Shown here: in pieces, positions 31,809-46,203 of the stretch
Numbering within the stretch: position 1 is the stretch's first letter
Layout of the letters: each line of letters starts with the position of its first letter
From: Lachnospiraceae bacterium
Lineage (GTDB): Bacteria; Bacillota; Clostridia; Lachnospirales; Lachnospiraceae
Direction of reading: 5' to 3'
NCBI GenBank assembly: GCA_014239155.1
Contig: JAAZZQ010000050.1
Coordinates: 22,284 to 86,283 of the forward strand
Length of the DNA: 64,000 bases
Program-made: the position numbers and the translations under genes
The notes under the pieces: model-generated
Told to the model about the DNA's origin: nothing
Databases searched by the model: none
Seen by the model: the letters and a program-made list of their open reading frames with translations, nothing else

Positions 31809-34800
31809 TCAATTATTATACAACACAAATCCGTTTAAATATGGTTTTTTCGATGTCTTTTTCCATTCTCGAGCCAAGCTTACCTGACCACTGCGCGGCG
31901 GTGCCACAACCTCGCAATTTGGTGAAAAAGATGCAACAGTCACATAACTGCATTCTCCAGTAATTGTTTCCATCACTTGAAGTTCTACATTGGTTACAAA
32001 ACAGCGTTCGCCAAAAGACAAATCTTCCAGATACAAAATACCGCTGTAATCCTTTACACGCGGCAATAGAAGCTCTTCTGGCGCTCTGTTGTCAAATGAC
32101 AATACTGCCTTGAGACTCTTCTCCTGCGCAGTTGTATCTACCTTAACTCTCAAACCTGCACCATGCTGTATACTCCACGGTTGGCTCGTAACATCCAAAG
32201 AAAATTCTTGCGCTTGTGTCATAATGGTTCCAGCTACCTGCCTGTCCTCCTCTATATCAGATAACATAACATCATAACTGCTATCGCTCACAGCCACCCT
32301 GTATTCATACTCTGTACCCGGTTTAAGTCCATTAATAAAGGTCAGCATTCCACCTGTTGTCTTGCTGATAATATAACTCTTTTTATTCTTAATCCAATCA
32401 TCTGCCCCCTTTTCTCTATAAAATACATAGAGATACGAGTTCGTATTTATTGGATTGTTTGTAATCATCGCCTTAATTGAAATATAAGAATATCCGCTTG
32501 CCGCAATGACATTGGTAAGGCTTCTACCATCTGTCTGCGTCAGGATTTCGCCAGAGCAAGTTCCATTGAGAGTCGCTGTAATCGGTGGATATTGCACACT
32601 GCTAATACCAGTCACAAATTCATAAACTGTGTCTGCATTTACATCATCACCTAAATAGCTTGTAAGTTCAAAATTACACTCTGCCTGGTTCTCAGCCAGC
32701 AATGTCGTCCGAATATCCCAGTCCTCTTCATCTTTCTCCTTGAAAAACAACACAAGATATGAGTCCGGCGCTGGATCCCCCTCAATCTGTGCCTGCAATG
32801 TAATATTGTGTGCCCCTGCAATCTGATTGCCGACACTCACCCGCACACCATCAATTTTTGCATCAAAAGTAAACGTATAACTTCCATACTCTTTCCCTTT
32901 AATATCGCGGAAAGAAACATTATAGCTTCGCTCATCCACAAGACCAGAAATCGTATACCCTGTTGTCTGATACCCCTTTGCGGCGTAGAGATTAAAGCTA
33001 GAACCATTTTTATAATACGCTCCATCTTCCTCCTGAACATAGGCAAACAAAGTGATATCCTTTGTAATATTTTCTGTTCTGCCTTTCAGCGCAATTGTAC
33101 AGGTTATTGATTCTGATAAATTCGCTGTGATTGAAACCGCTACCTCTGATTTTTCTGTATGAATGCGTTGATATTGTGTATTTATCAACGTACTGCCTTC
33201 AAAAAGCTCCCATTTAAAACCATACTCTGTATCTGGAGAAAGTGCAAAATAATCTGCTGCCTGAACAAATATTGTATAATCCTCCACTGCTGTAAGTGCT
33301 GTTTTTGTCCGCAACTCTGCATAGAGTTTTGTCTCATCATTATAATAATACAATTTATAGCTGTACGCAAAACTCCTTGTCAGTTCCATTTCATCTAATC
33401 CATAAGAAAGCACAGAATCATATGCTCCTGTATCTGCTGTCAAGCGAGGATTAATGCGCGCTTTTCCCATCTGAAAAGTACCGCGCTTCACTACACCGGC
33501 AATCCAAACTTCATATTCATATCCTGCACCTTCCTGCAAACCAATCAGCACACCTTTTGCCGTACCGTCTTTCACCTGAATTACCTTTGTCTCATACTCA
33601 CCAAGGGAATTTTTCATTCGATACTTTAATTTTCCTGTCCAATAAATTGTATCGTCTGTTATATGAACCGTATACTCTGCTTTGGTACTTTTTTCCTTAC
33701 TCTGCTTAATCGAAACAGACAATGCGCTCTCTGAAAATGGTGCCAAATCTGTCTTAACCTCCAAAGTCTTTTCCTTAAAATGTGCAGAATACCCTGATTC
33801 ATTAATCCACATTGTAACAAGATACGACGTATTGTGTTGCAAATCAGGCACTGATTTCTCAATCGTCCATCGCTCGCGGCCTTTTGTAGCAAGTTTTTCT
33901 ATATCTGAAACGATCGTTTTGCCATTTTGATCTGCAATCTCGTAACATAAATTAAAATATTCTGGAACTTTTCCTGAAAATGCAGTAATATCTGCTCTAA
34001 GCACAATATTGTCTGGTCCAGATGATCTAACATTATAATTTACCACCGCTGGATATTCTTTTGTATCAACTGTTGTATATGCAAAAGTAACACCACTTCG
34101 ATTATAAAATTCAAAGTAATAGGTCTGCGCTGGTTCAAGCCCTGTTACCGTAATGCTCGAAGTTCCATTAATATATCGTTGTACTGTCACTTCCTTATCG
34201 TACTCTGCAAGTGGACCATAACTGTATTTTGCCACTGGTTCCACAGCCTCTACTTCCAGTGTGATGCTGTCATATCCAGCACGCTTACTCCGAAAAATCA
34301 AGTTTTCGCGCGAGCTTCCTGTCTGCATTTTAATCGGATTGCTCTCTGGTATCAATACTGCCTCAAGTTCTAGTGTACTTGCATTGACCAAATACATTGT
34401 AAAGTTGTACTCTACTCCTGCCTCAAGTGCATTGATCATTCTTTCTTTTTTTACTTCCGGTGAAATCTGCTCCTCAATTAATTGATAGCCAATATCACTG
34501 TTTCCATATCGAATTTGCCAGTAGTAATTTCCGCCAAGCGCTGCACCATTTTTAGAAGAAAGTTTTATGTCCGCTGAAATAGTCCTGCTGGCTGCTCTCC
34601 AACCAATCTGCGCTGTAAAGACTCCTGTACTTGCTGTATAACCATTGCCTGTTCTTCCTACAGATGCCATTTTCACCCCAGTTACACCAAACTGAACACT
34701 TTTCCCAATCGCAGGTCCACTTTCCGCACAGGAAAGCTGCGGATATACTGTCTGTCCTTTTTCCAGATACATCAAAGCATATCGTATTGTATTCTGATAT

Positions 34801-35651
34801 AACTGGTTTCTTAACTTAACTCCATCTGCATACCGGTCATATATGCTCAATGATACACCACCTACACTGCTTCCCTGTATATAAAAATTATAATATCCTG
34901 ATTCTGATGCAGTAAATTGAAACCACTGTGCCCCATTATGTTTTAAGAGCACAGACTTAGCAAAGCCACTTTTTATCACTATTGTGTTATTCAACACAGA
35001 CTCCTCAACCACAGTCTGTTCCTCTGTTGATTCCTCCTCCGTGGTAGTTGTCTCCTCTGTCTCTTCCTCCGTCGTTTCTTCTTCTGTCTCCTCGTCTGTG
35101 GTCTCTTCTTCCTCTGTCTCTGTATCCTTTTCCTTGGAGTACTCCTCCGATGTCTCCTCCGTACTTTGTTGCGTATCCGAAGTTTCAGACGAGGAAGACT
35201 CTTCCGTGTTTGTCTCTGTTGTGGAAGAGTCCTCGCTGCTTGTTGTCTCTGTACTAGAAGACTCCTCGGCGCTTGTCGTCTCTGTACTAGAACTTTCCTC
35301 ACTGCTTGCAGTTTCAGTGCGGGAAGGTTCTTCATTGGAAGTTTCTGTACTAAAATTTTCCTCACTGGAAGACTCCTCACTTGTACAAACTTCCTCTGAA
35401 GAATCTTCCTCTGAAAGCTCTTCAGAGGAAAACTCTTCTGAAGATTCTTCTTCACTGGAAGATTCTTCCTCAAGAGTTTCTTCCTCCGAAGGCTTTTCTG
35501 GCTCTGAAGGTGCTTCCTCCTCCGATTCTTCTGAATCTTGTGATACGCTGCTCTCTGTCAAAGTCTCCTCTTCCGCCCCATAACTGATCTGTGGTATGCT
35601 TACCGCTAAAAGGCAGCTGCACAACAACACTGATATCATTCTGAAAAACAT
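31809..35651 (-). CDS. Large secreted protein: signal peptide, ~190-aa acidic S/E/T-rich region, then multiple FN3/Ig-like beta-sandwich repeats; no recognisable anchor
   Basis: 1280 aa. Signal peptide MFFRMISVLLCSCLLAVSIPQISYG-AEEE. The low-complexity region reads SSEESSSTETTSAEESSSTETT.... FN3-like strand motifs recur (GLEPAQTYYFEFYN, GLKPGTEYEYRVAV, GLQEGAGYEYEVWI). The C-terminus has no LPXTG or TM. Confidence 0.8.
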   Translation of the reverse strand: MFFRMISVLLCSCLLAVSIPQISYGAEEETLTESSVSQDSEESEEEAPSEPEKPSEEETLEEESSSEEESSEEFSSEELSEEDSSEEVCTSEESSSEENFSTETSNEEPSRTETASSEESSSTETTSAEESSSTETTSSEDSSTTETNTEESSSSETSDTQQSTEETSEEYSKEKDTETEEEETTDEETEEETTEEETEETTTTEEESTEEQTVVEESVLNNTIVIKSGFAKSVLLKHNGAQWFQFTASESGYYNFYIQGSSVGGVSLSIYDRYADGVKLRNQLYQNTIRYALMYLEKGQTVYPQLSCAESGPAIGKSVQFGVTGVKMASVGRTGNGYTASTGVFTAQIGWRAASRTISADIKLSSKNGAALGGNYYWQIRYGNSDIGYQLIEEQISPEVKKERMINALEAGVEYNFTMYLVNASTLELEAVLIPESNPIKMQTGSSRENLIFRSKRAGYDSITLEVEAVEPVAKYSYGPLAEYDKEVTVQRYINGTSSITVTGLEPAQTYYFEFYNRSGVTFAYTTVDTKEYPAVVNYNVRSSGPDNIVLRADITAFSGKVPEYFNLCYEIADQNGKTIVSDIEKLATKGRERWTIEKSVPDLQHNTSYLVTMWINESGYSAHFKEKTLEVKTDLAPFSESALSVSIKQSKEKSTKAEYTVHITDDTIYWTGKLKYRMKNSLGEYETKVIQVKDGTAKGVLIGLQEGAGYEYEVWIAGVVKRGTFQMGKARINPRLTADTGAYDSVLSYGLDEMELTRSFAYSYKLYYYNDETKLYAELRTKTALTAVEDYTIFVQAADYFALSPDTEYGFKWELFEGSTLINTQYQRIHTEKSEVAVSITANLSESITCTIALKGRTENITKDITLFAYVQEEDGAYYKNGSSFNLYAAKGYQTTGYTISGLVDERSYNVSFRDIKGKEYGSYTFTFDAKIDGVRVSVGNQIAGAHNITLQAQIEGDPAPDSYLVLFFKEKDEEDWDIRTTLLAENQAECNFELTSYLGDDVNADTVYEFVTGISSVQYPPITATLNGTCSGEILTQTDGRSLTNVIAASGYSYISIKAMITNNPINTNSYLYVFYREKGADDWIKNKKSYIISKTTGGMLTFINGLKPGTEYEYRVAVSDSSYDVMLSDIEEDRQVAGTIMTQAQEFSLDVTSQPWSIQHGAGLRVKVDTTAQEKSLKAVLSFDNRAPEELLLPRVKDYSGILYLEDLSFGERCFVTNVELQVMETITGECSYVTVASFSPNCEVVAPPRSGQVSLAREWKKTSKKPYLNGFVLYNN

Positions 35652-35746: not shown

Positions 35747-37258
35747 TCATTTCATCAACTCATCAATCTCTGCCAAAATATCTTTCTTTCGCTCTGTAAA
35801 TAACATATCCTTATTATGTTTAAAGTACGCTTGACAGCCATATTTGCCAATATATTGTGCCGCATAACTATTGATCGTCAGCTCTGTCACCAATATTAAA
35901 AGCTCCTGACTTCCCGCGTCAAAAGCCTCCTCACAAAACTGGAATACATTTGTCAGATTGCTATCTGCCTGCGAAACAAGTTTTGTGAGTGCCTTTTTTC
36001 TTTTGTCAAAATCTGTTTTTAAAAGTTTAAATGCAGCCTCACCACTTGCAGGAAGTTTTTGCGCAATCAACTTTAATTGCTCATCCAATACAGCCATTGT
36101 AATGTTCAGTATATACTCACGATCCGCCGAAAGATTTCCAGCTTTCTTTCCGACAGAAATTGCCTTTTGTTCTGCTAGTATCTGCCGATTGACAACCTCT
36201 ATAAAATCTTTCTCAACAACAAAATCCGCCCGCATTAGCCTTAGACAGTTCACCAATTCCATCACTGCCCCCTCCTGTGCTGACACTTCGCGCACCACAG
36301 TAACCAGACCATCTATAAGCAATCCCAGCAGAGATAAACGCTCGTCAAATTTCGCATCCTTGGCACGTTTGACAATCTCTTTTCCGGCCTTTCCAGCCAT
36401 AATCTTATCAACTTGATAATCAGATCTGTACTTTTTAAACAAATCATAATAGACTGCAAAACCTTTGGCTATTTTTTTATTCTGCAAATATTGAATCACA
36501 AGCTGTTCGGTAACAGGAATCTCCTTTTGCTCATACAATTTTATCATGTCAGAAAGGTCACTCCAACCACGTGCTGTCACAAAACTTTTCCCATCCACAG
36601 TTGTTTCTATTTTATAGAAATCATCCTTTTTAATATCCAGATATGTTGTGATTGCAGGGTGTGTACCTCTCGCATAAGCATATTCTTTCCATGCCTCATA
36701 ATCCGCTTTCACATCAATGCGCTTTAATCGATCCCACGTCACAATATCAAATTCCCGCACAGAATTATTATATTCTGGTGGATTTCCTGCGGTGACTACA
36801 ATCCAACCACCGGGAACACTGTGACGCCCAAATGTCTTGTACTGCAAAAACTGCAACATTGAGGGCGCAAGCGTTTCCGAAACACAGTTAATCTCATCAA
36901 GAAACAAAATGCCTTCCTTTAATCCAGTCACTTCCATTAAATCATAAATCGATGCTATAATTTCACTCATTGTATACTCACTGACACTGTACTCCTCACC
37001 GCCATAATTTTTCTTGACAATAAATGGCAGTCCTAGTGCAGACTGTCTAGTATGATGCGTCATAGAATAACTGACCAAACCAATCTGTAACTCCTGTGCA
37101 ATCTGTTCCATAATCGCTGTCTTTCCAATGCCTGGCGCTCCCATCAAAAAAATAGGGCGCTGCCGTTCAATAGGAATCACATAATTCCCAAACTGATCTT
37201 TTGTCAAATAAGCTGACACTGCATTTTTAATATCTTCCTTTGCCTGTTTAATATTCAT
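35747..37258 (-). CDS. MoxR-class (AAA_5-like) AAA+ ATPase with ~200-aa helical C-terminal extension
   Basis: 503 aa. Walker A LMGAPGIGKT and Walker B ILFLDEIN, followed by VVTAGNPPEYN. GGAGAG RBS lies 12 nt after the upstream stop. Confidence 0.85.
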   Translation of the reverse strand: MNIKQAKEDIKNAVSAYLTKDQFGNYVIPIERQRPIFLMGAPGIGKTAIMEQIAQELQIGLVSYSMTHHTRQSALGLPFIVKKNYGGEEYSVSEYTMSEIIASIYDLMEVTGLKEGILFLDEINCVSETLAPSMLQFLQYKTFGRHSVPGGWIVVTAGNPPEYNNSVREFDIVTWDRLKRIDVKADYEAWKEYAYARGTHPAITTYLDIKKDDFYKIETTVDGKSFVTARGWSDLSDMIKLYEQKEIPVTEQLVIQYLQNKKIAKGFAVYYDLFKKYRSDYQVDKIMAGKAGKEIVKRAKDAKFDERLSLLGLLIDGLVTVVREVSAQEGAVMELVNCLRLMRADFVVEKDFIEVVNRQILAEQKAISVGKKAGNLSADREYILNITMAVLDEQLKLIAQKLPASGEAAFKLLKTDFDKRKKALTKLVSQADSNLTNVFQFCEEAFDAGSQELLILVTELTINSYAAQYIGKYGCQAYFKHNKDMLFTERKKDILAEIDELMK

Positions 37259-37270
37259 TGATTTCTCTCC

Positions 37271-38962
37271 TTATTCTGTGGTGTATTGAAAACGAAACCC
37301 CTTTTCTTTGCAATAGTCTTCTGCCTTACTTCCTTTGGGACAGGATATAATCAGGTTTGGACAACCACTAAATATCTCATCTCCCTCATTAAACTTATTA
37401 AAAACAGATGTTAACCTTTGAACAGAGCTTGGCAGTATAACCTCTTTCAAATCACTACAACCCAAAAATGCATTTCCACCGATTTCAAGAACACCTTCAC
37501 AAATATGTACACGCTCTAATTTCTTACAATAGAAAAATGCACACGCCCCTATCCTCTTTACTGTTCCTGGAATGGTAAGACTTTTCAAAGATTCACATGC
37601 CCAAAACGCACCTATGCCAAGTTCTTCTAAACCATCAGCAATCATTATCTCTTGCAGGGAAGACATATTGCGAAACGCATACTTTTCAACCTTTCGCAGT
37701 GTCTTTGGCAGTATAATCTTTGTTATCTTACCATGTTGTTCAATCTGCTCTTGTCTTGTATATACAGAAGTAAAACCAGTATTTCCAGTAAATGCACCAT
37801 ATCCTATCACTGTGACAATACCCTTGCCAATCTTTTCTGGAACAGTAACTTCAATTTCCTTGCCTTTGTAGTTTGTAATGGCTAGTGTTCCATCCTCTTT
37901 TTTCTCATAACGCCACAGTTTTCTTAATGCTGTGACAGAATCTGACGCCATATTTAACTCCCGCATTAACTTTTTTTCTGCTTTCCTTTGTTCAGCCGTC
38001 AAGTCAACAGTACGATTTTTGAAATCCAAAAGCCATGCTGCCGATTCTATTTTGTGATTTTCTGAAGCATATGCAATTAATTCATCACGCCGGCGTATAT
38101 CCTTAAGCCAGCCGTAATCCTCTACAATTTTTAGACAGGAAACACGCTCATTATCAATGATTTCTCCTAGAATCCTTTTCTTGTTCATCTCAGATTGATT
38201 AAAATGTTGTAGAAAAACCATAAAAAACTCGGGAATCAAAAACCGCTGACTGTTTATTCGCCAAAGTTTTTCCGTGAAATGCAACTTTTTTTCTTCGCCG
38301 ATTTCTGTGTGTAATGCAGAGAGAACATGTGCCAATGTATCATCACTAAGTGTCCCTAGAAAATACCAGTACATCGTCCACCTGTCATTTTCATTTCCAC
38401 CTCCCTCTGTCAACATTTCTTTTATCTCATTGGAAAAGCAAATTCCTTTTTCCTTTAATGCATTGGCAATATTTCTCTCATCTGTAAGGATTGCATAGTA
38501 AAGATAGTCTCCAGAGAAAAGACAAAGCTTCCCCTCCTGTTCGCACAAATATTCTATAACCTGAATACGTTCTTCCTCACAGAGTGGCATAAGCGGTTTG
38601 CCCTCACTGTCAACAAGCTCATTCATCTTTCTATTTGGCGCAAAATAACCCTTGATTCGATCCACACCTTTTAATAAAAACAAAATAAAAAAATCCGGAA
38701 GAAGCATTAAATAGTGCGTGCCAAAATCATAATACAAATCGTAATCTATCCTTGTCTCATATCCGAATGATACGCCGCTTTCGACAAGAGCTTTCACCAT
38801 ATCCACCCCGGCAAAACGACCAGCAATTCCCAAAATACGAGCCGTGAGAAAAGGATTATGAAGCTCCTGATAAAGTCTCACCGCCTCGTCAGGTACACCG
38901 CTAAGCACTGCCTTCTCAATTGCTTTTAGCTTTGCCTTTTCCTCTCTATATTGTGTATTCAT
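37271..38962 (-). CDS. Cytoplasmic ankyrin-like + leucine-rich-repeat (LRR_5/BspA-type) protein, paralog 4 (most divergent N-terminus)
   Basis: 563 aa, no signal peptide or TM. Four xxAFxxCxxL LRR units by hand count. Conserved linker AAWLLDFKNRTVDLTAEQRKAEKKLMRELN. ATGA start/stop overlap with the upstream paralog. Confidence 0.8.
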   Translation of the reverse strand: MNTQYREEKAKLKAIEKAVLSGVPDEAVRLYQELHNPFLTARILGIAGRFAGVDMVKALVESGVSFGYETRIDYDLYYDFGTHYLMLLPDFFILFLLKGVDRIKGYFAPNRKMNELVDSEGKPLMPLCEEERIQVIEYLCEQEGKLCLFSGDYLYYAILTDERNIANALKEKGICFSNEIKEMLTEGGGNENDRWTMYWYFLGTLSDDTLAHVLSALHTEIGEEKKLHFTEKLWRINSQRFLIPEFFMVFLQHFNQSEMNKKRILGEIIDNERVSCLKIVEDYGWLKDIRRRDELIAYASENHKIESAAWLLDFKNRTVDLTAEQRKAEKKLMRELNMASDSVTALRKLWRYEKKEDGTLAITNYKGKEIEVTVPEKIGKGIVTVIGYGAFTGNTGFTSVYTRQEQIEQHGKITKIILPKTLRKVEKYAFRNMSSLQEIMIADGLEELGIGAFWACESLKSLTIPGTVKRIGACAFFYCKKLERVHICEGVLEIGGNAFLGCSDLKEVILPSSVQRLTSVFNKFNEGDEIFSGCPNLIISCPKGSKAEDYCKEKGFRFQYTTE

Positions 38963-40605
38963 TTATATATTGACTCCTCCATTGTATCTGCTTTTTCTTT
39001 ATCACAGTTTTGAAATGAAAGGTTATTTTTCTTACAGTAAGACTCTATTTCGCTTCCCTCTGGACAATATATAACAAGCTTGGGACAATCCGAAAATGCC
39101 CGCTGGCCAATTTTTAAGACCCCCTCGCTGATATACACCTCCTCAAGATTTCTGCAATCCGTAAAGGCATATTCCCCAATTTCTTTTACAGATTCAGGAA
39201 TTGTGAGTCTTTTGAGAGAACCACATTCATAAAAAATAAACGCGGCAATTTCCTCAACACCTTGAGGAATGTTAATTTCCCTGAGCGCCTTCATACTCAT
39301 AAATGCACCCGCACCAATAGATTGAACTGTTTCTGGCAGTGTAATTTTCTTAATAGTGCGATGCTGTTGTTCCTGTTCCCATGAGGTGTATGTAATGATG
39401 CCCGCTTTCCCTGATGAGCCCGCAAGTGCACCATCTTTGATCGCTGTGACAGTGCTTCTTCCTATTTTTTCTGGGACAGTCACCTCCGTATGTGTACCTT
39501 TATAGTTGGTAATCACAAGAGTACCATCTTCTCTTTTCTTATAGCTCCAAATCTTTTTCAGTGCTTCAACGGAATTCGGTGATATATTTTTGTTGAGTTC
39601 ACGCATCATCTTTTTGTCGGCTTTTTCCCGCTCTGCGGCAAAATCAGCAGTGCGGTTCTTGTAGTCTAAAAGCCATGCAAGCGCCTCTGTCTTCTTATTT
39701 TCAGAGGCGTACTCTATTATCTCATCGCGCTTTTTGGGCACAGAAAACCAACCTACTCGCTCAATTATTGGCAGTGCCTCTAAGATGTCATCATCAATTA
39801 GATCACGAATTATTTGATATTTCTTCATCTTATCCTGTCTAAAGTGCACAAGGAAATACTCAAACACTTCTAAATCCTGAAAACGCTTCTTGGTAACATC
39901 AAACATTTTTTCTGTATAATAAAATGGTTTTTCATCAATCTCCAAGGCAAGCTGTTGCATAACATCAAGATAATTCTTATCCGCAAGTTTTCCTGTCAGG
40001 GCACAAAATTCATACCAGTATCCATCTGAAATCGTAACACTCCCCTCTGTCATTGTATGAACACGTCTGTCAGAAAGTGTGACACCATGTCTTCTCAACT
40101 CTTCAAAAATAACAGCATCTTTGGCACAAATCGCATAAAACAGCATTTCTTCTGGCTGAAATGAAAGTTTTTCCTTCTGTGCAATAAGGTATTCCAACAC
40201 GGTCACTCGCTCCTTATCTGCAAGAAACGACAAGGGTTTTCCCGCTTCTCGTTTCCTATTTTTTGTGAACTTCATACCTGTGAGGCAGCAGGCGCCCTTT
40301 AGTTCACCGCGAAACACTTTCAACAAATACAACGCATAGTTTGTGCGATAATTCGCATACTTCTGCCCAATATAGCAGCCATATAATATCTCACTTTCTT
40401 GCGTTGATGGAAAGTCAAAGGTTGCACCTTTTTTTACTAAAATCTTTACCATATCAAGTCCACGAAAACGACAGGCAAGCCCAAGTGCTGGCGCGGACAT
40501 TTCCACATAGCCAAGCTTGTCATAGAGTTTAGAAAGCTCCTCAACAGAGCAGTTGATTACTGCATGTTCTAAGGCTTCTGCTTTTTCTTTCTGTGTAAGC
40601 TCCAT
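38959..40605 (-). CDS. Cytoplasmic ankyrin-like + LRR (LRR_5/BspA-type) protein, paralog 3
   Basis: 548 aa. ANK-like segment APALGLACRFRGLDMVKILVKKGATF. Four LRR units. GGAGGAA RBS lies inside the upstream gene's end. Confidence 0.8.
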   Translation of the reverse strand: MELTQKEKAEALEHAVINCSVEELSKLYDKLGYVEMSAPALGLACRFRGLDMVKILVKKGATFDFPSTQESEILYGCYIGQKYANYRTNYALYLLKVFRGELKGACCLTGMKFTKNRKREAGKPLSFLADKERVTVLEYLIAQKEKLSFQPEEMLFYAICAKDAVIFEELRRHGVTLSDRRVHTMTEGSVTISDGYWYEFCALTGKLADKNYLDVMQQLALEIDEKPFYYTEKMFDVTKKRFQDLEVFEYFLVHFRQDKMKKYQIIRDLIDDDILEALPIIERVGWFSVPKKRDEIIEYASENKKTEALAWLLDYKNRTADFAAEREKADKKMMRELNKNISPNSVEALKKIWSYKKREDGTLVITNYKGTHTEVTVPEKIGRSTVTAIKDGALAGSSGKAGIITYTSWEQEQQHRTIKKITLPETVQSIGAGAFMSMKALREINIPQGVEEIAAFIFYECGSLKRLTIPESVKEIGEYAFTDCRNLEEVYISEGVLKIGQRAFSDCPKLVIYCPEGSEIESYCKKNNLSFQNCDKEKADTMEESIYK

Positions 40606-40607
40606 CT

Positions 40608-42590
40608 TTATTCCTCCATAAAATAATTGATTTCCAAATCTTCATTATTCCGAAACCGAAGGCCTTTTTTAATGCAATATTCCTCCATTTTACTTTTTTT
40701 CGGGCATACTACAGTTAAATTGGGGCACTCTTCAAACACACCACACTTGCGCGCTCCATACTTTTTTGTTATCAGATGCTGGACGGATTTTGGGACAAAA
40801 ACCACCTTTAAATTCGGGCATTTAAAAAATACACCATCGTCCATTTCCTGAACCCCCTCACGGATCTGTACACTCTCAAGAACACTACATTCATAAAACA
40901 TGTATTTTTTCATATTAGTCACAGTTCCGGGAATCATTATATTTTTTAGACAAACACAACCATAAAATGCAGATGCACCGATTTCTTCAACGCTCTCCCC
41001 AATATGGATTTCCTCCAATTTTTGACAGTGCGCAAATGCAAGTTTCCCAATTTTCTTTAAAGAATTGGAAAAAATAAGCTTTCTTAGGGCGTTACAATTT
41101 GCAAATACTTCTTCACCAATTTCACAAACACCATCAGGAATGGTTATCTGTTTTAATGCTTCCATTACATAAAATGCTCTTGCACCAATTTTTTCTAAAC
41201 TCTTTGGAAGTGTAAGATGTTTTAGTGAGCGACAACACCCAAATGCCTCTTCCTCAATTACACTTACACCTTCAGGAATGTTAATCTCCACAAGTGACTT
41301 CATATTAAAAAAAGCACCCGCTCTAATTTCATGAACTGTTTCTGGAAGGATTATTTTTGTAATTTTACAGCGGTGTTCTATCTGCTCTGCGGTCACTTTT
41401 CCATTATAATAACTGCCCGAAAAAGCACCCTTTCCAATTGCTGCGACAACGCCTTTTCCTATCTTCTCTGGAACAGTCACCTCAAACTCTGTCCCTTTAT
41501 AATTAGTAATAGTAAGGGTGCCATTCTCCTCTTTTTTATAATTCCAAATCTTCTTTAACGCAGTAACAGAATTTGGTGCAGCATTCAGTTCACGCATCAG
41601 TTTCTTATCCGCTCTCTCCTGTTCTGCAGCAAAATCAGCCGTGCGGTTTTTAAAATCCAGAATCCATGACAACATCTCTGTCTTGTTGTTCTCCGATGCA
41701 TACGCTATAATTTCATCGCGCCTTTTGGTGACATTGAGCCACCCCTCACGCTCAATAATAGGAAGCACATCTATCTGATCTTGTTCTATAAAATCACGTA
41801 TCATCTCAATTTTATTCATTTTCTCCTGTTTGAATTGCGCTAGAAAAAATTCAAATATTTTGAGATCACAAAACCGTTTTTTAGTAATTTGGTATATATT
41901 CCATGTAAAATAAAATTGCTTTCCATCAAGTTCAGCAGCAATCTGCTGCATGATTTCCAGATAATCGCTGTCGGCTAACTGTTCTGTAAGAAGAACATAC
42001 TCAAACCAGTACCCATCCATAGCGATAGCACCTTCTGTTAGCTTTTGCACACGGATTTTAGAAAGTTTAATATTATACGTTTTCAATTCCTTTACAATGG
42101 CAGTATCTTTGAAGTATATCGCATAAAATAATAATTCTTCTGGCTGAAAAGCTATCTTTTCTCTGTTCTCTAAAAGATATTTTAACACATCCACACGTTT
42201 CTCATCCGAAAGAAATGGTAGTTGGCGTCCCTCTTTTGTATTTGCACTCCTTTCCATTGTCATACCGTTTATGCAAAAAATTCTTGAATTTTCTCCAAAA
42301 ATTTTTAATAAATACATTGCATAATTTGTTCGGTAATTCCCATATTTCTTCCCGATATAACAATGATATCTCTCCTCAATTTTCTTAGTGGATGGAAAGT
42401 CAAAGGTTGCTCCTTTTTCCACCAGCACCTTCACGATATCAAGTCCTCGGAAGCGGCAGGCAAGACCAAGTGCAGGTGCAGACATCTCTATTTCTCCAAG
42501 CGCGTCACAGATTTTTCTTAGGTCCTCAACAGAGTTATTAAGAACTGCCTGCTGCAACTGCATGGCTTTTTCTTCCTGTGTAAATTCCAT
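40608..42590 (-). CDS. Cytoplasmic ankyrin-like + LRR (LRR_5/BspA-type) protein, paralog 2
   Basis: The start is set at MEFTQEEKA (42590), because the track's MKGGMK extension is the RBS AAGGGGGG. Eight LRR units by hand count. Confidence 0.8.
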   Translation of the reverse strand: MEFTQEEKAMQLQQAVLNNSVEDLRKICDALGEIEMSAPALGLACRFRGLDIVKVLVEKGATFDFPSTKKIEERYHCYIGKKYGNYRTNYAMYLLKIFGENSRIFCINGMTMERSANTKEGRQLPFLSDEKRVDVLKYLLENREKIAFQPEELLFYAIYFKDTAIVKELKTYNIKLSKIRVQKLTEGAIAMDGYWFEYVLLTEQLADSDYLEIMQQIAAELDGKQFYFTWNIYQITKKRFCDLKIFEFFLAQFKQEKMNKIEMIRDFIEQDQIDVLPIIEREGWLNVTKRRDEIIAYASENNKTEMLSWILDFKNRTADFAAEQERADKKLMRELNAAPNSVTALKKIWNYKKEENGTLTITNYKGTEFEVTVPEKIGKGVVAAIGKGAFSGSYYNGKVTAEQIEHRCKITKIILPETVHEIRAGAFFNMKSLVEINIPEGVSVIEEEAFGCCRSLKHLTLPKSLEKIGARAFYVMEALKQITIPDGVCEIGEEVFANCNALRKLIFSNSLKKIGKLAFAHCQKLEEIHIGESVEEIGASAFYGCVCLKNIMIPGTVTNMKKYMFYECSVLESVQIREGVQEMDDGVFFKCPNLKVVFVPKSVQHLITKKYGARKCGVFEECPNLTVVCPKKSKMEEYCIKKGLRFRNNEDLEINYFMEE

Positions 42591-42604
42591 TTTCATTCCC
42601 CCCT

Positions 42605-44800
42605 TCAAACGCCGCTTTTTTCAAATACATTGTCTTTAAATCGAAACCCTTTTTCTCTACAATATGCTTCCGTATCACTTCCCTTAGGACAGATTACTGT
42701 CAGATTTGGACAAGCCCCAAACACCTCATAGACAATATTTCTATATTCCATAGATTTTAAGCGCTGAACAGACTGTGGCACACAGACTTCCTTTAGCGAA
42801 TCACAGCACCAAAATAAACCTGCATTTAGTTCTTGAACCCCCTCACAAATAAAAACTCTTTCCAAATTTTTACAGCCTGAAAATGCATGTAATCCAACAC
42901 GCACTACTGTACCGGGAATTGTGACATTTCTCAGAGCATTGCACCCATAAAAAGCCTCATCACCAATCTCTTGAATCCCTTCATTCATATAGATTGTTTC
43001 TATACTTCTACAGTCTGCAAATGCCTCTTTTCCAACGCGTTGTACTGTTTTAGGAATTATAATATTTTTTAAATTCTGACAGGCATAAAATGCACATTTG
43101 CCAATTTCCTCGACACCTTCACAGAGACCTACTTCTCTTAGTTTTCTACAGTTTGCAAATGCTTCCTCTCCAATTATTTTTACACTTGCAGGAATTGTAA
43201 GTTTCCTTAAAGAACTGCATCCAGAAAATGCATCTTTACTAATTTTCTCTACGTTTGGGGGAATTACAAGTTCTTTTAAAGAAGCGCATCCATGAAATGC
43301 CCCCTCACAAACCTCTCGCATATCTTTATGAATAGATACTGCTTCCAACTTTCGACAATTATAAAATGCTTTGTTGCCAATTTTTTCTATATTTTCGGAT
43401 ACAATAAGTTCTCTTAGATGACAACATCCGCTAAATGCCTCCACATCAATCTCTTTTACTCCTTCCGGAATATTGATTTGTTCCAAGTTGGCCAGCTCAT
43501 GGAAAGCACCTTTTCCAATGTATGTGATTGTCTGTGGCAGCACAATTTTTGTAATTTTTTTATTCCGATCTATCTGTTGTTGTGTCGCACATGGTTTGTA
43601 GGTATTATCCCCTGCAAATATACCTTTTCCAATCGCTGTGACAACGTTTTTCCCAATTTTTTCTGGAACAATAACCTCGATATGTATACCTTTGTAACCT
43701 GTAATAATAAGAGTATTATCTTTTTGTTTTCTATAATTCCATATCTGTCGAAGTGCAGTCACAGAACCCGGTGCTGCGCCGAGTTCTCGCATCAGTTTTC
43801 TATCAGCCTTTTCCTGCTCTGCAGCGATATTGGCAGTACGATTTTTAAAGTCAAGCAGCCACGCAAGTGCTTCTGTCTTTTTATTTTGTGATGCATATAA
43901 AATCATTTCATCACGTTTTTTTGGCGTAGCAAGCCAGCCTTGTCTCTCAATAACAGCCAACGCATCAATGGCATTCTCGTCAATTAGATAACGTATTATA
44001 GAAAATTTTTTCATTTTTTCTTGTCTAAAATTAGCAAGGAAAAATGAAAAAATATCAATATTATAGAAACGTTTTTGTGTACTATACAATATTTTTTCCG
44101 TAAAACGATATGGCTTTCCATGAAGCTCAGTAGAGAGTTGACGCATCACTTGAATATAATCTTTGTCGGCAAGCTTTGCGGTTAAAGAACTAAACTCAAA
44201 CCAATATCCATCCGCTATGGTACCCTCTGTTATTGCATAACTACGTTTTTCTGAAAGCACAATATTATGCTCTTTTAGGGTATCATAAATAACAAAATCC
44301 TTTGCAAATATTGCATAAAAAAGCATTTCCTCTGGCTGAAAAGATAATTCTTGTTTGTTTTCCAACAAAAAATAAAGCACCGCAATTCGCTCCTCATCCG
44401 CAAGAAGTGACAATTGCTCTCCATCTTCCCTCATTATCTTTTGAGTCAGCTTCATGCCCTGTAAGCAGCGAGCGCCCTTCAATCCACCACGATAACTTTT
44501 CAGCAAGTACAGCGAATAGTTTGTGCGATAATTTTCACGATAGTTTGCATGGTTTTTACCAATATGGCAATGATATGTCATTTCAATTTCCTCAGTTGAA
44601 GGAAAATCAAACGTTGCTCCTTTTTCCACCAGCGCCTTCACAATATCAAGCCCTCGAAAGCGGCAGGCAAGTCCCAACGCAGGCGCAGACATTTCCACAT
44701 ACCCTAACTTGTCATATATCTTACAAAGCTCCCCGACAGAATTATTGAGAACTGCATGCTGCAGCCGCGCAGCTTTTTCTTCCTGCGTAAGAAGTTCCAT
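42605..44800 (-). CDS. Cytoplasmic ankyrin-like + LRR (LRR_5/BspA-type) protein, paralog 1
   Basis: The start is set at MELLTQEEKA (44800), after an AAAGGTGGA RBS. Eleven LRR units by hand count. Confidence 0.8.
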   Translation of the reverse strand: MELLTQEEKAARLQHAVLNNSVGELCKIYDKLGYVEMSAPALGLACRFRGLDIVKALVEKGATFDFPSTEEIEMTYHCHIGKNHANYRENYRTNYSLYLLKSYRGGLKGARCLQGMKLTQKIMREDGEQLSLLADEERIAVLYFLLENKQELSFQPEEMLFYAIFAKDFVIYDTLKEHNIVLSEKRSYAITEGTIADGYWFEFSSLTAKLADKDYIQVMRQLSTELHGKPYRFTEKILYSTQKRFYNIDIFSFFLANFRQEKMKKFSIIRYLIDENAIDALAVIERQGWLATPKKRDEMILYASQNKKTEALAWLLDFKNRTANIAAEQEKADRKLMRELGAAPGSVTALRQIWNYRKQKDNTLIITGYKGIHIEVIVPEKIGKNVVTAIGKGIFAGDNTYKPCATQQQIDRNKKITKIVLPQTITYIGKGAFHELANLEQINIPEGVKEIDVEAFSGCCHLRELIVSENIEKIGNKAFYNCRKLEAVSIHKDMREVCEGAFHGCASLKELVIPPNVEKISKDAFSGCSSLRKLTIPASVKIIGEEAFANCRKLREVGLCEGVEEIGKCAFYACQNLKNIIIPKTVQRVGKEAFADCRSIETIYMNEGIQEIGDEAFYGCNALRNVTIPGTVVRVGLHAFSGCKNLERVFICEGVQELNAGLFWCCDSLKEVCVPQSVQRLKSMEYRNIVYEVFGACPNLTVICPKGSDTEAYCREKGFRFKDNVFEKSGV

Positions 44801-44817
44801 AGATATTCCACCTTTCA

Positions 44818-46203
44818 TTATAGTTCATCTTTTCTGAGTACCAACTTAATTGCCCACGATGGAATATCATAATTATTGTGCATACTATAAGTACTCTTCT
44901 CGTCCTCAATAAATACAAATGCGGTGTCGTAAGATGGCTTTTTGCTGGGAAATGGACCAAAACCATCTGTAAAATAAATCAAACCTTTAAGATTATCAAA
45001 TTCTCTATTGTGCACTAATGTATTGACATATTCAAACACAGGACGAAAATCCGTTCCTCCTAAACCATGAAGTTTCATGTGTTTTAGATACGCATCAAAC
45101 TCCTGCTGGGTAGTAATCTTGACATCTTCTTGAATATTTGCGTCACATTGAATAATGTGCAAATTTATTTTTGTAAAAAAGCTTTCTGTGCTCTTGAGAA
45201 TATTATAGGTTTTCTGCACAAAAGTCTGCACCAAATCACCGGAAGTTGAGCCTGACGTGTCAATCGCCACCACAAACTCCCGAATGCGCTTTACTTCCTT
45301 ATATTCTAGCGGTTCTATCAAGGGCATATTTTCATATAATTGTAGCCCATAAGTATAAAAATTATAGTCAAACTCATCCGGATTGATTTTCATCATCTCT
45401 GCTCTGACAGCAAATTTTTTAAGAAACTCTGTATAATCATAGCGCTCTCTGTTCACTTCCCGCAAATTCTGTGTTAACAGTCCTGCCTCTGTTCCTCGAC
45501 TCTTCAAAAAAACTTCTAGTTCTGTCTGCATGCGCAAAGAAATATCTCCCCAACTTTGTAAAAGTAGTAAGCGATTTGGCACAAGCCCTGCACCATTCCC
45601 AATGTTTGCTATCCGTTCCCCAAAAATGGCATAAATTCCCATCTCTTTTTTCTGCTCCTCTGTAAGATACCAGAGGCAGTGGTCATCTCCTTTAAACAAC
45701 CGTGACAGTCTTTCCACCAAATCATCAGAAAGTTTTTCATCCAAAAAATATCTGTATATCTTCTCCGCGGAAATTGTCTTTACCTTCTTTTTGAATAAAT
45801 CGAAAAATTGAACCTGTTCCTTCGCTTTGGTAATGTTTAAATAGTTTAGCTCCAAATCATTAATAGCGCTTTCCACTGCAATGTCACAAGCCAAATCCCA
45901 CATTGTTTGATTAACCAGTGTATTCACAAAAAAATGCTTAAAAACACAATGCAGTACACTATGTAAAAAATTACGCGTCGGATAATTTTCATCAAGTTGA
46001 TATGCATTCAAAATATGTACTGGATCATAAACATATACGTCGCCATCGCAGGCGGAGAAGGGAGTTACCTCAGGCTTGGGTCCAATTCTAAACTGATTTA
46101 ATGACATGTCCATAAAACGCATATTAACCAACAGCCGATTTTTGGACATCTGAATAATATCGGCTGCTATCTTTTCAATCTTTTCTTTTTTTTCCTGTTC
46201 CAT
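44818..46203 (-). CDS. VWA-domain protein with N-terminal DUF2201_N-like (degenerate metallopeptidase-like) domain
   Basis: 461 aa. MIDAS-type motif VVAIDTSGSTSGD. The N-terminal block NFLHSVLHCVFKH sits where related proteins carry HExxH. First gene of the operon. Confidence 0.75.
   Translation of the reverse strand: MEQEKKEKIEKIAADIIQMSKNRLLVNMRFMDMSLNQFRIGPKPEVTPFSACDGDVYVYDPVHILNAYQLDENYPTRNFLHSVLHCVFKHFFVNTLVNQTMWDLACDIAVESAINDLELNYLNITKAKEQVQFFDLFKKKVKTISAEKIYRYFLDEKLSDDLVERLSRLFKGDDHCLWYLTEEQKKEMGIYAIFGERIANIGNGAGLVPNRLLLLQSWGDISLRMQTELEVFLKSRGTEAGLLTQNLREVNRERYDYTEFLKKFAVRAEMMKINPDEFDYNFYTYGLQLYENMPLIEPLEYKEVKRIREFVVAIDTSGSTSGDLVQTFVQKTYNILKSTESFFTKINLHIIQCDANIQEDVKITTQQEFDAYLKHMKLHGLGGTDFRPVFEYVNTLVHNREFDNLKGLIYFTDGFGPFPSKKPSYDTAFVFIEDEKSTYSMHNNYDIPSWAIKLVLRKDEL

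Follow-up and report, generated by a model that had tools for sequence, protein, structure and literature searches.

The window analysed here is a stretch of 64,000 nucleotides from a Lachnospiraceae bacterium (NCBI GenBank assembly GCA_014239155.1, contig JAAZZQ010000050.1, positions 22,284 to 86,283 of the forward strand). Its minus strand carries a tandem array of four genes, all with intact open reading frames (ORFs), which encode paralogous leucine-rich repeat (LRR) proteins, called A to D below. Each protein combines an N-terminal module (N-module) and a linker with a variable number of LRR_5 units and a C-terminal cap. The array lies between the gene of a DUF2201-type VWA protein and the gene of a MoxR-like AAA+ ATPase. 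In gene order, the features are:

44818..46203, minus strand: DUF2201-type VWA gene, 461 amino acids (aa), first gene of the operon (Pfam DUF2201 at 4e-12, DUF2201_N weak)
42605..44818, minus strand: paralog A, N-module, linker, 11 LRR_5 units and cap; likely start 44800, 731 aa
40608..42608, minus strand: paralog B, N-module, linker, 8 LRR_5 units and cap; likely start 42587, 659 aa
38959..40605, minus strand: paralog C, 548 aa, N-module, linker and 4 LRR_5 units, the last unit being fused to the cap
39580..39742, minus strand: the near-invariant segment of the family, with paralog C as the example (about residues 288-342)
37271..38962, minus strand: paralog D, 563 aa, the most diverged N-module, 4 LRR_5 units and cap; adjoins the ATPase gene
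35747..37258, minus strand: MoxR-like AAA+ ATPase gene, 503 aa, last gene of the operon (Pfam AAA_5 at 5e-8 and AAA, with a weak bpMoxR match)

The starts of paralogs A and B are placed at 44800 (MELLTQ) and 42587 (MEFTQ) because of the positions of the ribosome-binding sites (RBS); in paralog A, the RBS AAAGGTGGA precedes the ATG at 44800, and this start also fits the end coordinate of the interval that the first-pass annotation had delimited. Along the order VWA-A-B-C-D-AAA, the gaps between genes measure at most 17 nucleotides and an RBS is found at every gap. The six genes are thus one tightly spaced predicted operon, of which the LRR paralog array is the variable middle, bracketed by the VWA and MoxR-type ATPase genes. 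Promoter and terminator scans gave counts not above those of shuffled sequence, and terminator-like sites on the coding strand inside the operon showed no excess over chance. It is this operon context that leads to the mechanistic reading of the LRR array developed below.

Pfam LRR_5 (PF13306) matches all four paralogs with E-values from 5e-131 to 2e-26 and scores of 431, 201, 98.8 and 92.8 bits, for a cut-off of 27.7. Using a regular expression, we counted 11, 8, 4 and 4 regular units at an exact spacing of 23 residues in A, B, C and D, with one extra degenerate cap unit in each of A, B and D. A hidden Markov model (HMM) built from the units returned 12, 9, 4 and 5, cap pseudo-units included. 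The repeats are rich in cysteine. The AlphaFold2 model of paralog C has a mean predicted local distance difference test score (pLDDT) of 87.5, and Foldseek superimposed its LRR part on the TpLRR structure 6mlx with an E-value of 8.6e-9 and a root-mean-square deviation of 1.1 over 165 columns; further BspA-type structures were matched as well, at E-values of 9e-9 to 1.5e-5 overall. NCBIfam gave partial LRR matches only, far under cut-off, among them the adhesin HupY/LrrG. As a separate observation, units of the types LxxIxIPxxV and LxxVxIxEGV alternate in the LRR region of paralog A (42605-43560) and in the other paralogs, forming a 46-residue super-repeat.

Alignment of the four proteins delineated the part that they share. 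The block SAPALGLACRFRGLD.VK.LV.KGATFDFPST does not differ among A, B and C and has diverged in D, while the linker A[LW]..LLD[FY]KNRT...AE..KA..K.MRELN ... W.Y.K....TL.IT.YKG...EV.VPEKIG and the cap CP.GS..E.YC are found in all four. The N-module, of about 350 aa, is predicted to form an all-helical solenoid when modelled alone (pLDDT 85, predicted template modelling score (pTM) 0.81). The search of this model against the PDB gave no match at E <= 0.001, the best fold match being importin-alpha (E 0.3), followed by DARPin and ankyrin-1 (E about 1); no sequence similarity to PDB entries was found for the N-module, nor for the VWA protein. Ank_3 reaches 26.6 bits in paralog B (cut-off 22.3) and stays below cut-off in A, C and D, and the Ank_2 cut-off is passed by some homologues and by an orphan paralog described below. 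The N-module represents a novel helical domain, whose signature peptide is very strongly conserved.

The first-pass annotation had proposed BspA-type LRR proteins with 11, 8, 4 and 4 repeats, built on three common elements (N-terminal block, linker and C-cap) and devoid of export signals. The LRR_5 and 6mlx matches and the unit spacing bear out the first two points, and the alignment recovers the three elements, with the divergence of the N-terminal block in D. Its description of the N-terminal region as ankyrin-like holds for one or two helix pairs, which Ank_3 in B and Ank_2 in some homologues detect, and does not extend to the whole N-module, for which no significant PDB fold match was obtained. 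The lack of an export signal was also recovered: no hydrophobic N-terminus, signal peptide, lipobox, membrane segment or anchor was seen in paralogs A to D, whose maximum Kyte-Doolittle value over 19 residues lies between 1.06 and 1.52. Among 174 homologues, 165 have no 19-residue window above 1.6 on this scale. The LRR paralogs are therefore predicted to be cytoplasmic. An export signal or a surface anchor, which is usual though not defining for BspA-type LRR proteins, is thus absent from these paralogs.

The N-module family comprises 401 representatives after clustering at 50% identity. LRR_5 is present in every member examined, in some of them on both sides of the N-module. We considered whether the long homologues, of 1084-1623 aa, were Rosetta-stone fusions to VWA or AAA domains; this was rejected, since they are LRR-N-module-LRR proteins. 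Across 47 family members, conservation peaks at residues 41-60 and 281-380, and the latter is the best-conserved long stretch, with a majority identity of 0.72-0.79. The segment ...RDE.I.YA....TE.LAWLLD[FY]KNRTAD..AE..KA.KK..RELNA, which belongs to this region, can be made out in 143 of 149 homologues whose identity is otherwise 30-40%.

The two bracketing genes encode proteins whose key motifs are kept. In the VWA protein, the VWA domain is C-terminal, follows a zincin-like N-domain and has an intact metal-ion-dependent adhesion site (MIDAS, DTSGS), which is retained as DxSxS in 32 of 32 homologues. The zincin-like domain reads HSVLH and so misses the catalytic Glu; none of the 32 homologues has HExxH. 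The ATPase shows Walker A (GAPGIGKT) and Walker B (ILFLDE) motifs, both kept in 27 of 27 homologues, and a C-terminal helical extension of about 300 aa. Its best sequence match in the PDB is midasin.

To determine how far this layout is shared, we compared 17 loci from other species of the genus and from one other genus. All genus loci that include their flanks have the organization VWA, n x [N-module+LRR], AAA, with n from 1 to 4. A species with 84%-identical proteins has VWA-700-725-650-573-AAA, and a more distant one has VWA-572-524-538-AAA in another chromosomal neighbourhood; in the other genus the order is VWA-AAA-N-module/LRR. A wider scan with one genome per species gave 69 loci, many of which come from metagenome-assembled genomes (MAGs) of Oscillospiraceae, Ruminococcaceae and Ruminiclostridium. 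It contained 23 complete arrays of the form VWA, n x [N-module+LRR], AAA, with n = 1, 3, 4, 5, 6 or 7, and one locus at a contig end where at least 9 N-module genes follow the VWA gene. The VWA gene precedes the array in every locus that has its upstream flank on the contig. The largest arrays, with 5 to at least 9 N-module+LRR genes between VWA and AAA, belong to Oscillospiraceae/Ruminococcaceae MAGs (loci L079-L100, L115, L117 and L119). The layout is thus conserved across species, across genera and across two families of Clostridia, Lachnospiraceae and Oscillospiraceae. A cultured strain in public records, Lachnospiraceae bacterium A4, has a three-gene array. A second layout was seen in two Oscillospiraceae/Ruminococcus loci (L088 and L097), where AAA and VWA are divergent and lie on the strand opposite to three N-module genes.

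We also searched the surroundings of 24 loci with Pfam, covering 109 flanking and 10 intra-array ORFs. LRR_5 was the only recurrent family (10 of 119 ORFs), and no other gene recurs in the array flanks. No defence, mobile-element or secretion-system family recurs in this set, and a defence-island or mobile-element context was rejected on this ground. The flanking genes are housekeeping ones (UvrC, QueH, RNase H, kinases). Further ORFs located inside some arrays (L071:2780-4729 and L117:2873-5075) have no N-module match by BLAST; if they are among the 10 LRR_5-positive ORFs, other LRR architectures would have been recruited into arrays. In the window, the ATPase gene is followed at 31809-35651 by a gene whose 1280-aa product is secreted and contains FN3-like modules as well as an acidic tract of Ser, Glu and Thr. 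The nearest species (L007/L056, L074) have this gene after the operon too, and it is absent beside more distant arrays.

The distribution of the N-module is patchy: 18 of the 60 further species examined in the genus have it, as does 1 of 150 genera from elsewhere in the family. Among the 60 species, an ATPase 87-95% identical to that of the window occurs only in N-module genomes, apart from two genomes (G192 and G198) that have partial fragments of the array-type ATPase and no N-module match. A core ATPase paralog, 53-58% identical, is present in 50 of the 60 genus genomes and in the window's own genome. Phylogenetic analysis placed the array ATPases in one clade (support 100/99), distinct from the core ATPase clade of the genus; sister to the array clade is the ATPase from the other genus in which an N-module protein occurs. 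N-module proteins are restricted to genomes with the array-type ATPase lineage. The array ATPases of Oscillospiraceae/Ruminococcaceae are 68-78% identical to that of the window, as against 55% for the core paralog in the window's own genome, which suggests that arrays have been transferred between families. The window's genome also carries an orphan N-module+LRR paralog on contig C44 (L006:9242-11047, minus strand), of 601 aa and about 41% identical. About 15 of the 18 species with an array have an orthologue of it, as against none of the 42 species that lack the array.

A related triad of genes is part of the core genome. In the window's own genome (contig C36, L028:6934-10841) it consists of a DUF2201-VWA protein of 437 aa, 42% identical to the array VWA, a MoxR-like AAA protein of 502 aa, and a third protein of 321 aa that combines an LRR_5 N-cap and about 3 units with a helical C-domain. 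The triad of VWA, AAA and an LRR_5 protein of about 310 aa was found at 13 of 13 genus loci examined (the own genome and 12 others), mostly between flavodoxin and FKBP genes, and at 11 of 12 loci of other genera of the family. This shows that the link of such a VWA-MoxR pair to a cytoplasmic LRR_5 protein is general, and that the array of the window is an expanded, accessory version of the core triad. Homology of the N-module with the helical C-domain of the core-triad protein was rejected, as hhalign gave a probability of 0.4% and an E-value of 0.14. The resemblance of AWLLDFK in the N-module to AYLLRYK in the core-triad protein scores at most 5.7 bits, with a shuffled maximum of 0.6; we did not use it as evidence because it may reflect an ankyrin-type second helix.

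The divergence of the paralogs bears on their age. B, C and D are 55, 57 and 42% identical to A at the protein level, the best-conserved DNA stretches between paralogs are 68-77% identical, the program TRF found no tandem repeat in the array, and the most similar pair of LRR units shares 74% of its nucleotides. The copies are therefore old, and a recent amplification of the repeats was rejected on the last two observations. The tree of N-modules contains at least 7 paralog clades, common to several species, of which arrays hold differing combinations. The window has types A, B, C and D, while its nearest relative has an extra type with A, B and C and without D. Type D is in every case the neighbour of the ATPase gene, and its sister in the tree is the orphan type. 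Proteins of the A-type clade are 737, 725, 728 or 486 aa long, and the number of LRR units per protein ranges from 0 to 14 across the family (HMM, 174 proteins).

Selection was analysed as the ratio of non-synonymous to synonymous substitution rates (dN/dS) by the Nei-Gojobori method on close species pairs. The ATPase gave values of 0.02-0.04 and the VWA protein 0.03-0.08 in four pairs and 0.26 in one, whereas the N-module chassis reached 0.19 and the LRR region 0.27, so that the paralogs have 5-10 times the dN/dS of the ATPase. Positions of the 23-residue unit were pooled over 15 close ortholog pairs. Scaffold positions gave 0-0.14 and exposed positions 0.2-0.71, with the highest values at positions 15-16, 19-20 and 22, while beta-strand positions 3 and 5 gave 0.36 and 0.51. 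No LRR unit position showed positive selection, the maximum being 0.71; pooled pairwise estimates of this kind are conservative and compatible with a few selected sites. Positive selection on the concave LRR face was thus rejected. A comparison of 58 alleles of one gene within a single common species gave identities of 97.4-99.8% and a constant length of 572 aa; the proportion of variable sites was 6.7% in the N-module and 12.1% in the LRR region. The family shows neither detectable positive selection nor hypervariability, and these data indicate that it owes its diversity to the turnover of genes, to changes in repeat number and to a relaxation of constraint.

Several evolutionary claims of the first-pass annotation can be judged from these results. 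Its view of the array as old, retained duplications agrees with the well-diverged DNA and with the N-module clades common to several species. A variable repeat number on a constant chassis is seen in the lengths of the A-type clade and in the family-wide range of units, and gene copy number varies from 1 to 7 per complete array. The notion of a diversified recognition repertoire was kept in part: divergence that is fast compared with the ATPase, gene turnover and repeat-number variation all fit it, but no position exceeds 0.71, the beta-strand positions are not the most variable ones and alleles are at least 97% identical. A concentration of variation on the concave LRR surface was not seen, as per-position dN/dS peaks at positions other than the beta-strand ones.

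Taken together, we favour, as somewhat likelier to be right than wrong, a reading in which the LRR paralogs serve an accessory VWA(DUF2201)-MoxR AAA+ machine in the cytoplasm as its interchangeable target-binding subunits. This reading is supported by the tight operon, the conserved bracket, the co-occurrence with the ATPase and the core triad, and also by the constraint on VWA and ATPase, which keep their motifs while the LRR genes turn over around a conserved docking-type segment. Each paralog would consist of two domains, an alpha-solenoid of about 350 aa, irregular and ankyrin-derived, and a BspA-type LRR horseshoe whose length varies. Docking to the VWA/ATPase pair would take place through the near-invariant segment, which comprises the terminal ankyrin-like helix AWLLD[FY]KNRTAD, an acidic linker and the LRR N-cap, and in which one conserved acidic residue may be the MIDAS ligand. 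The LRR/solenoid surface of every paralog would bind a different cellular or foreign protein, and the ATPase, presumably hexameric, would then remodel or release this target, by analogy with CbbQ-CbbO, NorQ-NorD and RavA-ViaA. Several observations weigh against this reading. The orphan paralog lies amid unrelated genes (RibD_C, DUF5722, a methyltransferase) with no VWA or AAA gene near; the full-length model of paralog C has a pTM of 0.59, which leaves its domain arrangement uncertain; neither the dN/dS of the unit positions nor the uniformity of the 58 alleles reveals selection for new specificities; and the roles of adaptor and client are inseparable on sequence alone.

A role of the LRR proteins as clients is one of the other explanations to be considered. 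They would be substrates that the VWA-MoxR pair folds, loads with a cofactor or assembles, the paralogs having differing downstream roles. Characterised MoxR-VWA pairs do serve a specific co-encoded client, the conserved tag could equally mark a client for recognition, and Cys-rich 23-residue repeats could require folding help. However, the known clients are metal-centre enzymes, whereas neither Pfam nor NCBIfam finds an enzymatic domain in the LRR proteins and the N-module has no PDB fold match; moreover, a chaperone kept for up to 9 fast-changing repeat proteins, with no further output, would bring no obvious benefit. We hold this explanation to be improbable. That the LRR proteins act outside the cell as surface adhesins after non-classical export, perhaps together with the 1280-aa FN3 protein, is very improbable. 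In its favour, the solved structures closest to these proteins bear the annotation of cell-surface LRR proteins, the sub-threshold HupY/LrrG matches point the same way, and in the window as in the nearest species the gene of the secreted FN3 giant comes after the operon. Nevertheless, the paralogs lack every export or anchoring feature looked for, as do nearly all homologues by the hydrophobicity measure, more distant arrays lack the FN3 gene, genes of secretion systems do not recur in the surroundings and both bracketing genes lead to cytoplasmic proteins.

A function in conflict or defence, which we regard as unlikely though more probable than the client role, would make the LRR paralogs sensors of phage or other invader proteins and the VWA-MoxR pair a threshold switch or neutraliser, in a split NLR-like system. 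The accessory and patchy distribution in 18 of 60 species of the genus, the ATPase identities that suggest lateral spread, the birth-and-death evolution of sensor-like genes in arrays of up to 7-9 genes and the presence of a fast third component beside a conserved NTPase, as in published MoxR-vWA ternary systems, all speak for it. Against this, no effector domain is encoded in the operon or adjoining it, and the zincin-like domain of the VWA protein lacks the catalytic Glu in 32 of 32 homologues. The flanks are of housekeeping type, without recurrent defence or mobile-element families; every unit position has a dN/dS below 1, and within-species alleles are nearly identical; and the homologous triad is syntenic throughout the genus, like a housekeeping locus. 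In PADLOC-DB 2.0, the ATPase gives weak P-loop matches only, to IetA (E 6e-6, residues 5-62) and PDC-S73 (E 7e-4), while the LRR and VWA proteins have no match. A related proposal, which we likewise hold to be unlikely, is that of an effector-less split NLR-like surveillance machine whose paralogs recognise foreign (phage or plasmid) or damaged proteins. Handed over by means of the invariant tag and the MIDAS of the VWA protein, the target would be dismantled or sequestered by the MoxR ATPase, and the number of genes in an array (1 to at least 9) would decide how broad the recognition is.

Comparison with known systems places the array between several of them. Characterised MoxR-VWA pairs act on co-encoded clients, CbbQO on Rubisco and NorQD on NO reductase. 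Like CbbQ-CbbO, NorQ-NorD, RavA-ViaA and CoxD-CoxE, the operon combines an AAA_5/MoxR ATPase with intact Walker motifs and a MIDAS-bearing VWA protein, and the mechanism expected by analogy is the capture of an acidic residue by the MIDAS followed by ATP-driven remodelling. It departs from these pairs, which serve one metalloenzyme client, in that no enzyme is co-encoded and 1 to at least 7 repeat-protein genes take its place, and in the long C-terminal helical extension of the ATPase. If the LRR proteins indeed select targets, one motor would be redirected by exchanging repeat proteins.

It is routine to annotate the LRR_5 proteins of bacteria, and to discuss them, as adhesins of the cell surface. 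The paralogs share with BspA/TpLRR proteins (6mlx, 4gt6, 4fs7, 4oju and PcpA 4cp6) the 23-residue unit LxxIxIPxxVxxIGxxAFxxCxx and the fold, at the E-values given above. Unlike these secreted, lipoprotein or surface proteins, they have no export signal, carry a family-specific helical N-module and are encoded within an ATPase operon. A whole LRR_5 family of gut Lachnospiraceae and Oscillospiraceae, with about 400 clusters at 50% identity, would thus be cytoplasmic and tied to an AAA+/VWA motor. The coupling of LRR arrays of variable length to an NTPase, in a multigene family of sensors, recalls the LRR sensors of the NLR/STAND type. Here, however, the NTPase is a MoxR AAA+ protein on a separate polypeptide and not an LRR-fused STAND domain, there is no signalling or death domain, and no positive selection was detected.

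The closest parallel is with the MoxR-vWA ternary systems, whose described third components are VMAP, iSTAND, iSTAND2, beta-propeller, FtsH and TERNS3 (Kaur, Burroughs, Iyer, Aravind 2020, 2021; PMC7159879, PMC8195603). Neither the LRR type nor DUF2201 is mentioned in these two papers, and our literature search found no description of a VWA(DUF2201)-MoxR-LRR arrangement. As in the ternary systems, MoxR AAA+ and vWA genes occupy one conserved neighbourhood together with a conserved third component, here the N-module/LRR genes of 23 of 23 complete arrays and the LRR_5 gene of the core triads, which evolves faster than its partners and may be repeat-built and multicopy. The differences concern each part of the system. 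The third component is ankyrin-like plus LRR_5 (Pfam shows LRR_5 and weak Ank only). The vWA protein is of the DUF2201 type, with its vWA domain C-terminal, an inactive zincin-like N-domain and no C-terminal effector domains, and no effector-associated domain (EAD), peptidase, TIR or other effector is encoded. The hosts are unicellular gut Clostridia rather than multicellular actinobacteria or cyanobacteria, and the array stands between the two core genes. With this operon, the MoxR-vWA systems gain a third component that is LRR-based, in a phylum and a lifestyle for which no such system had been described.

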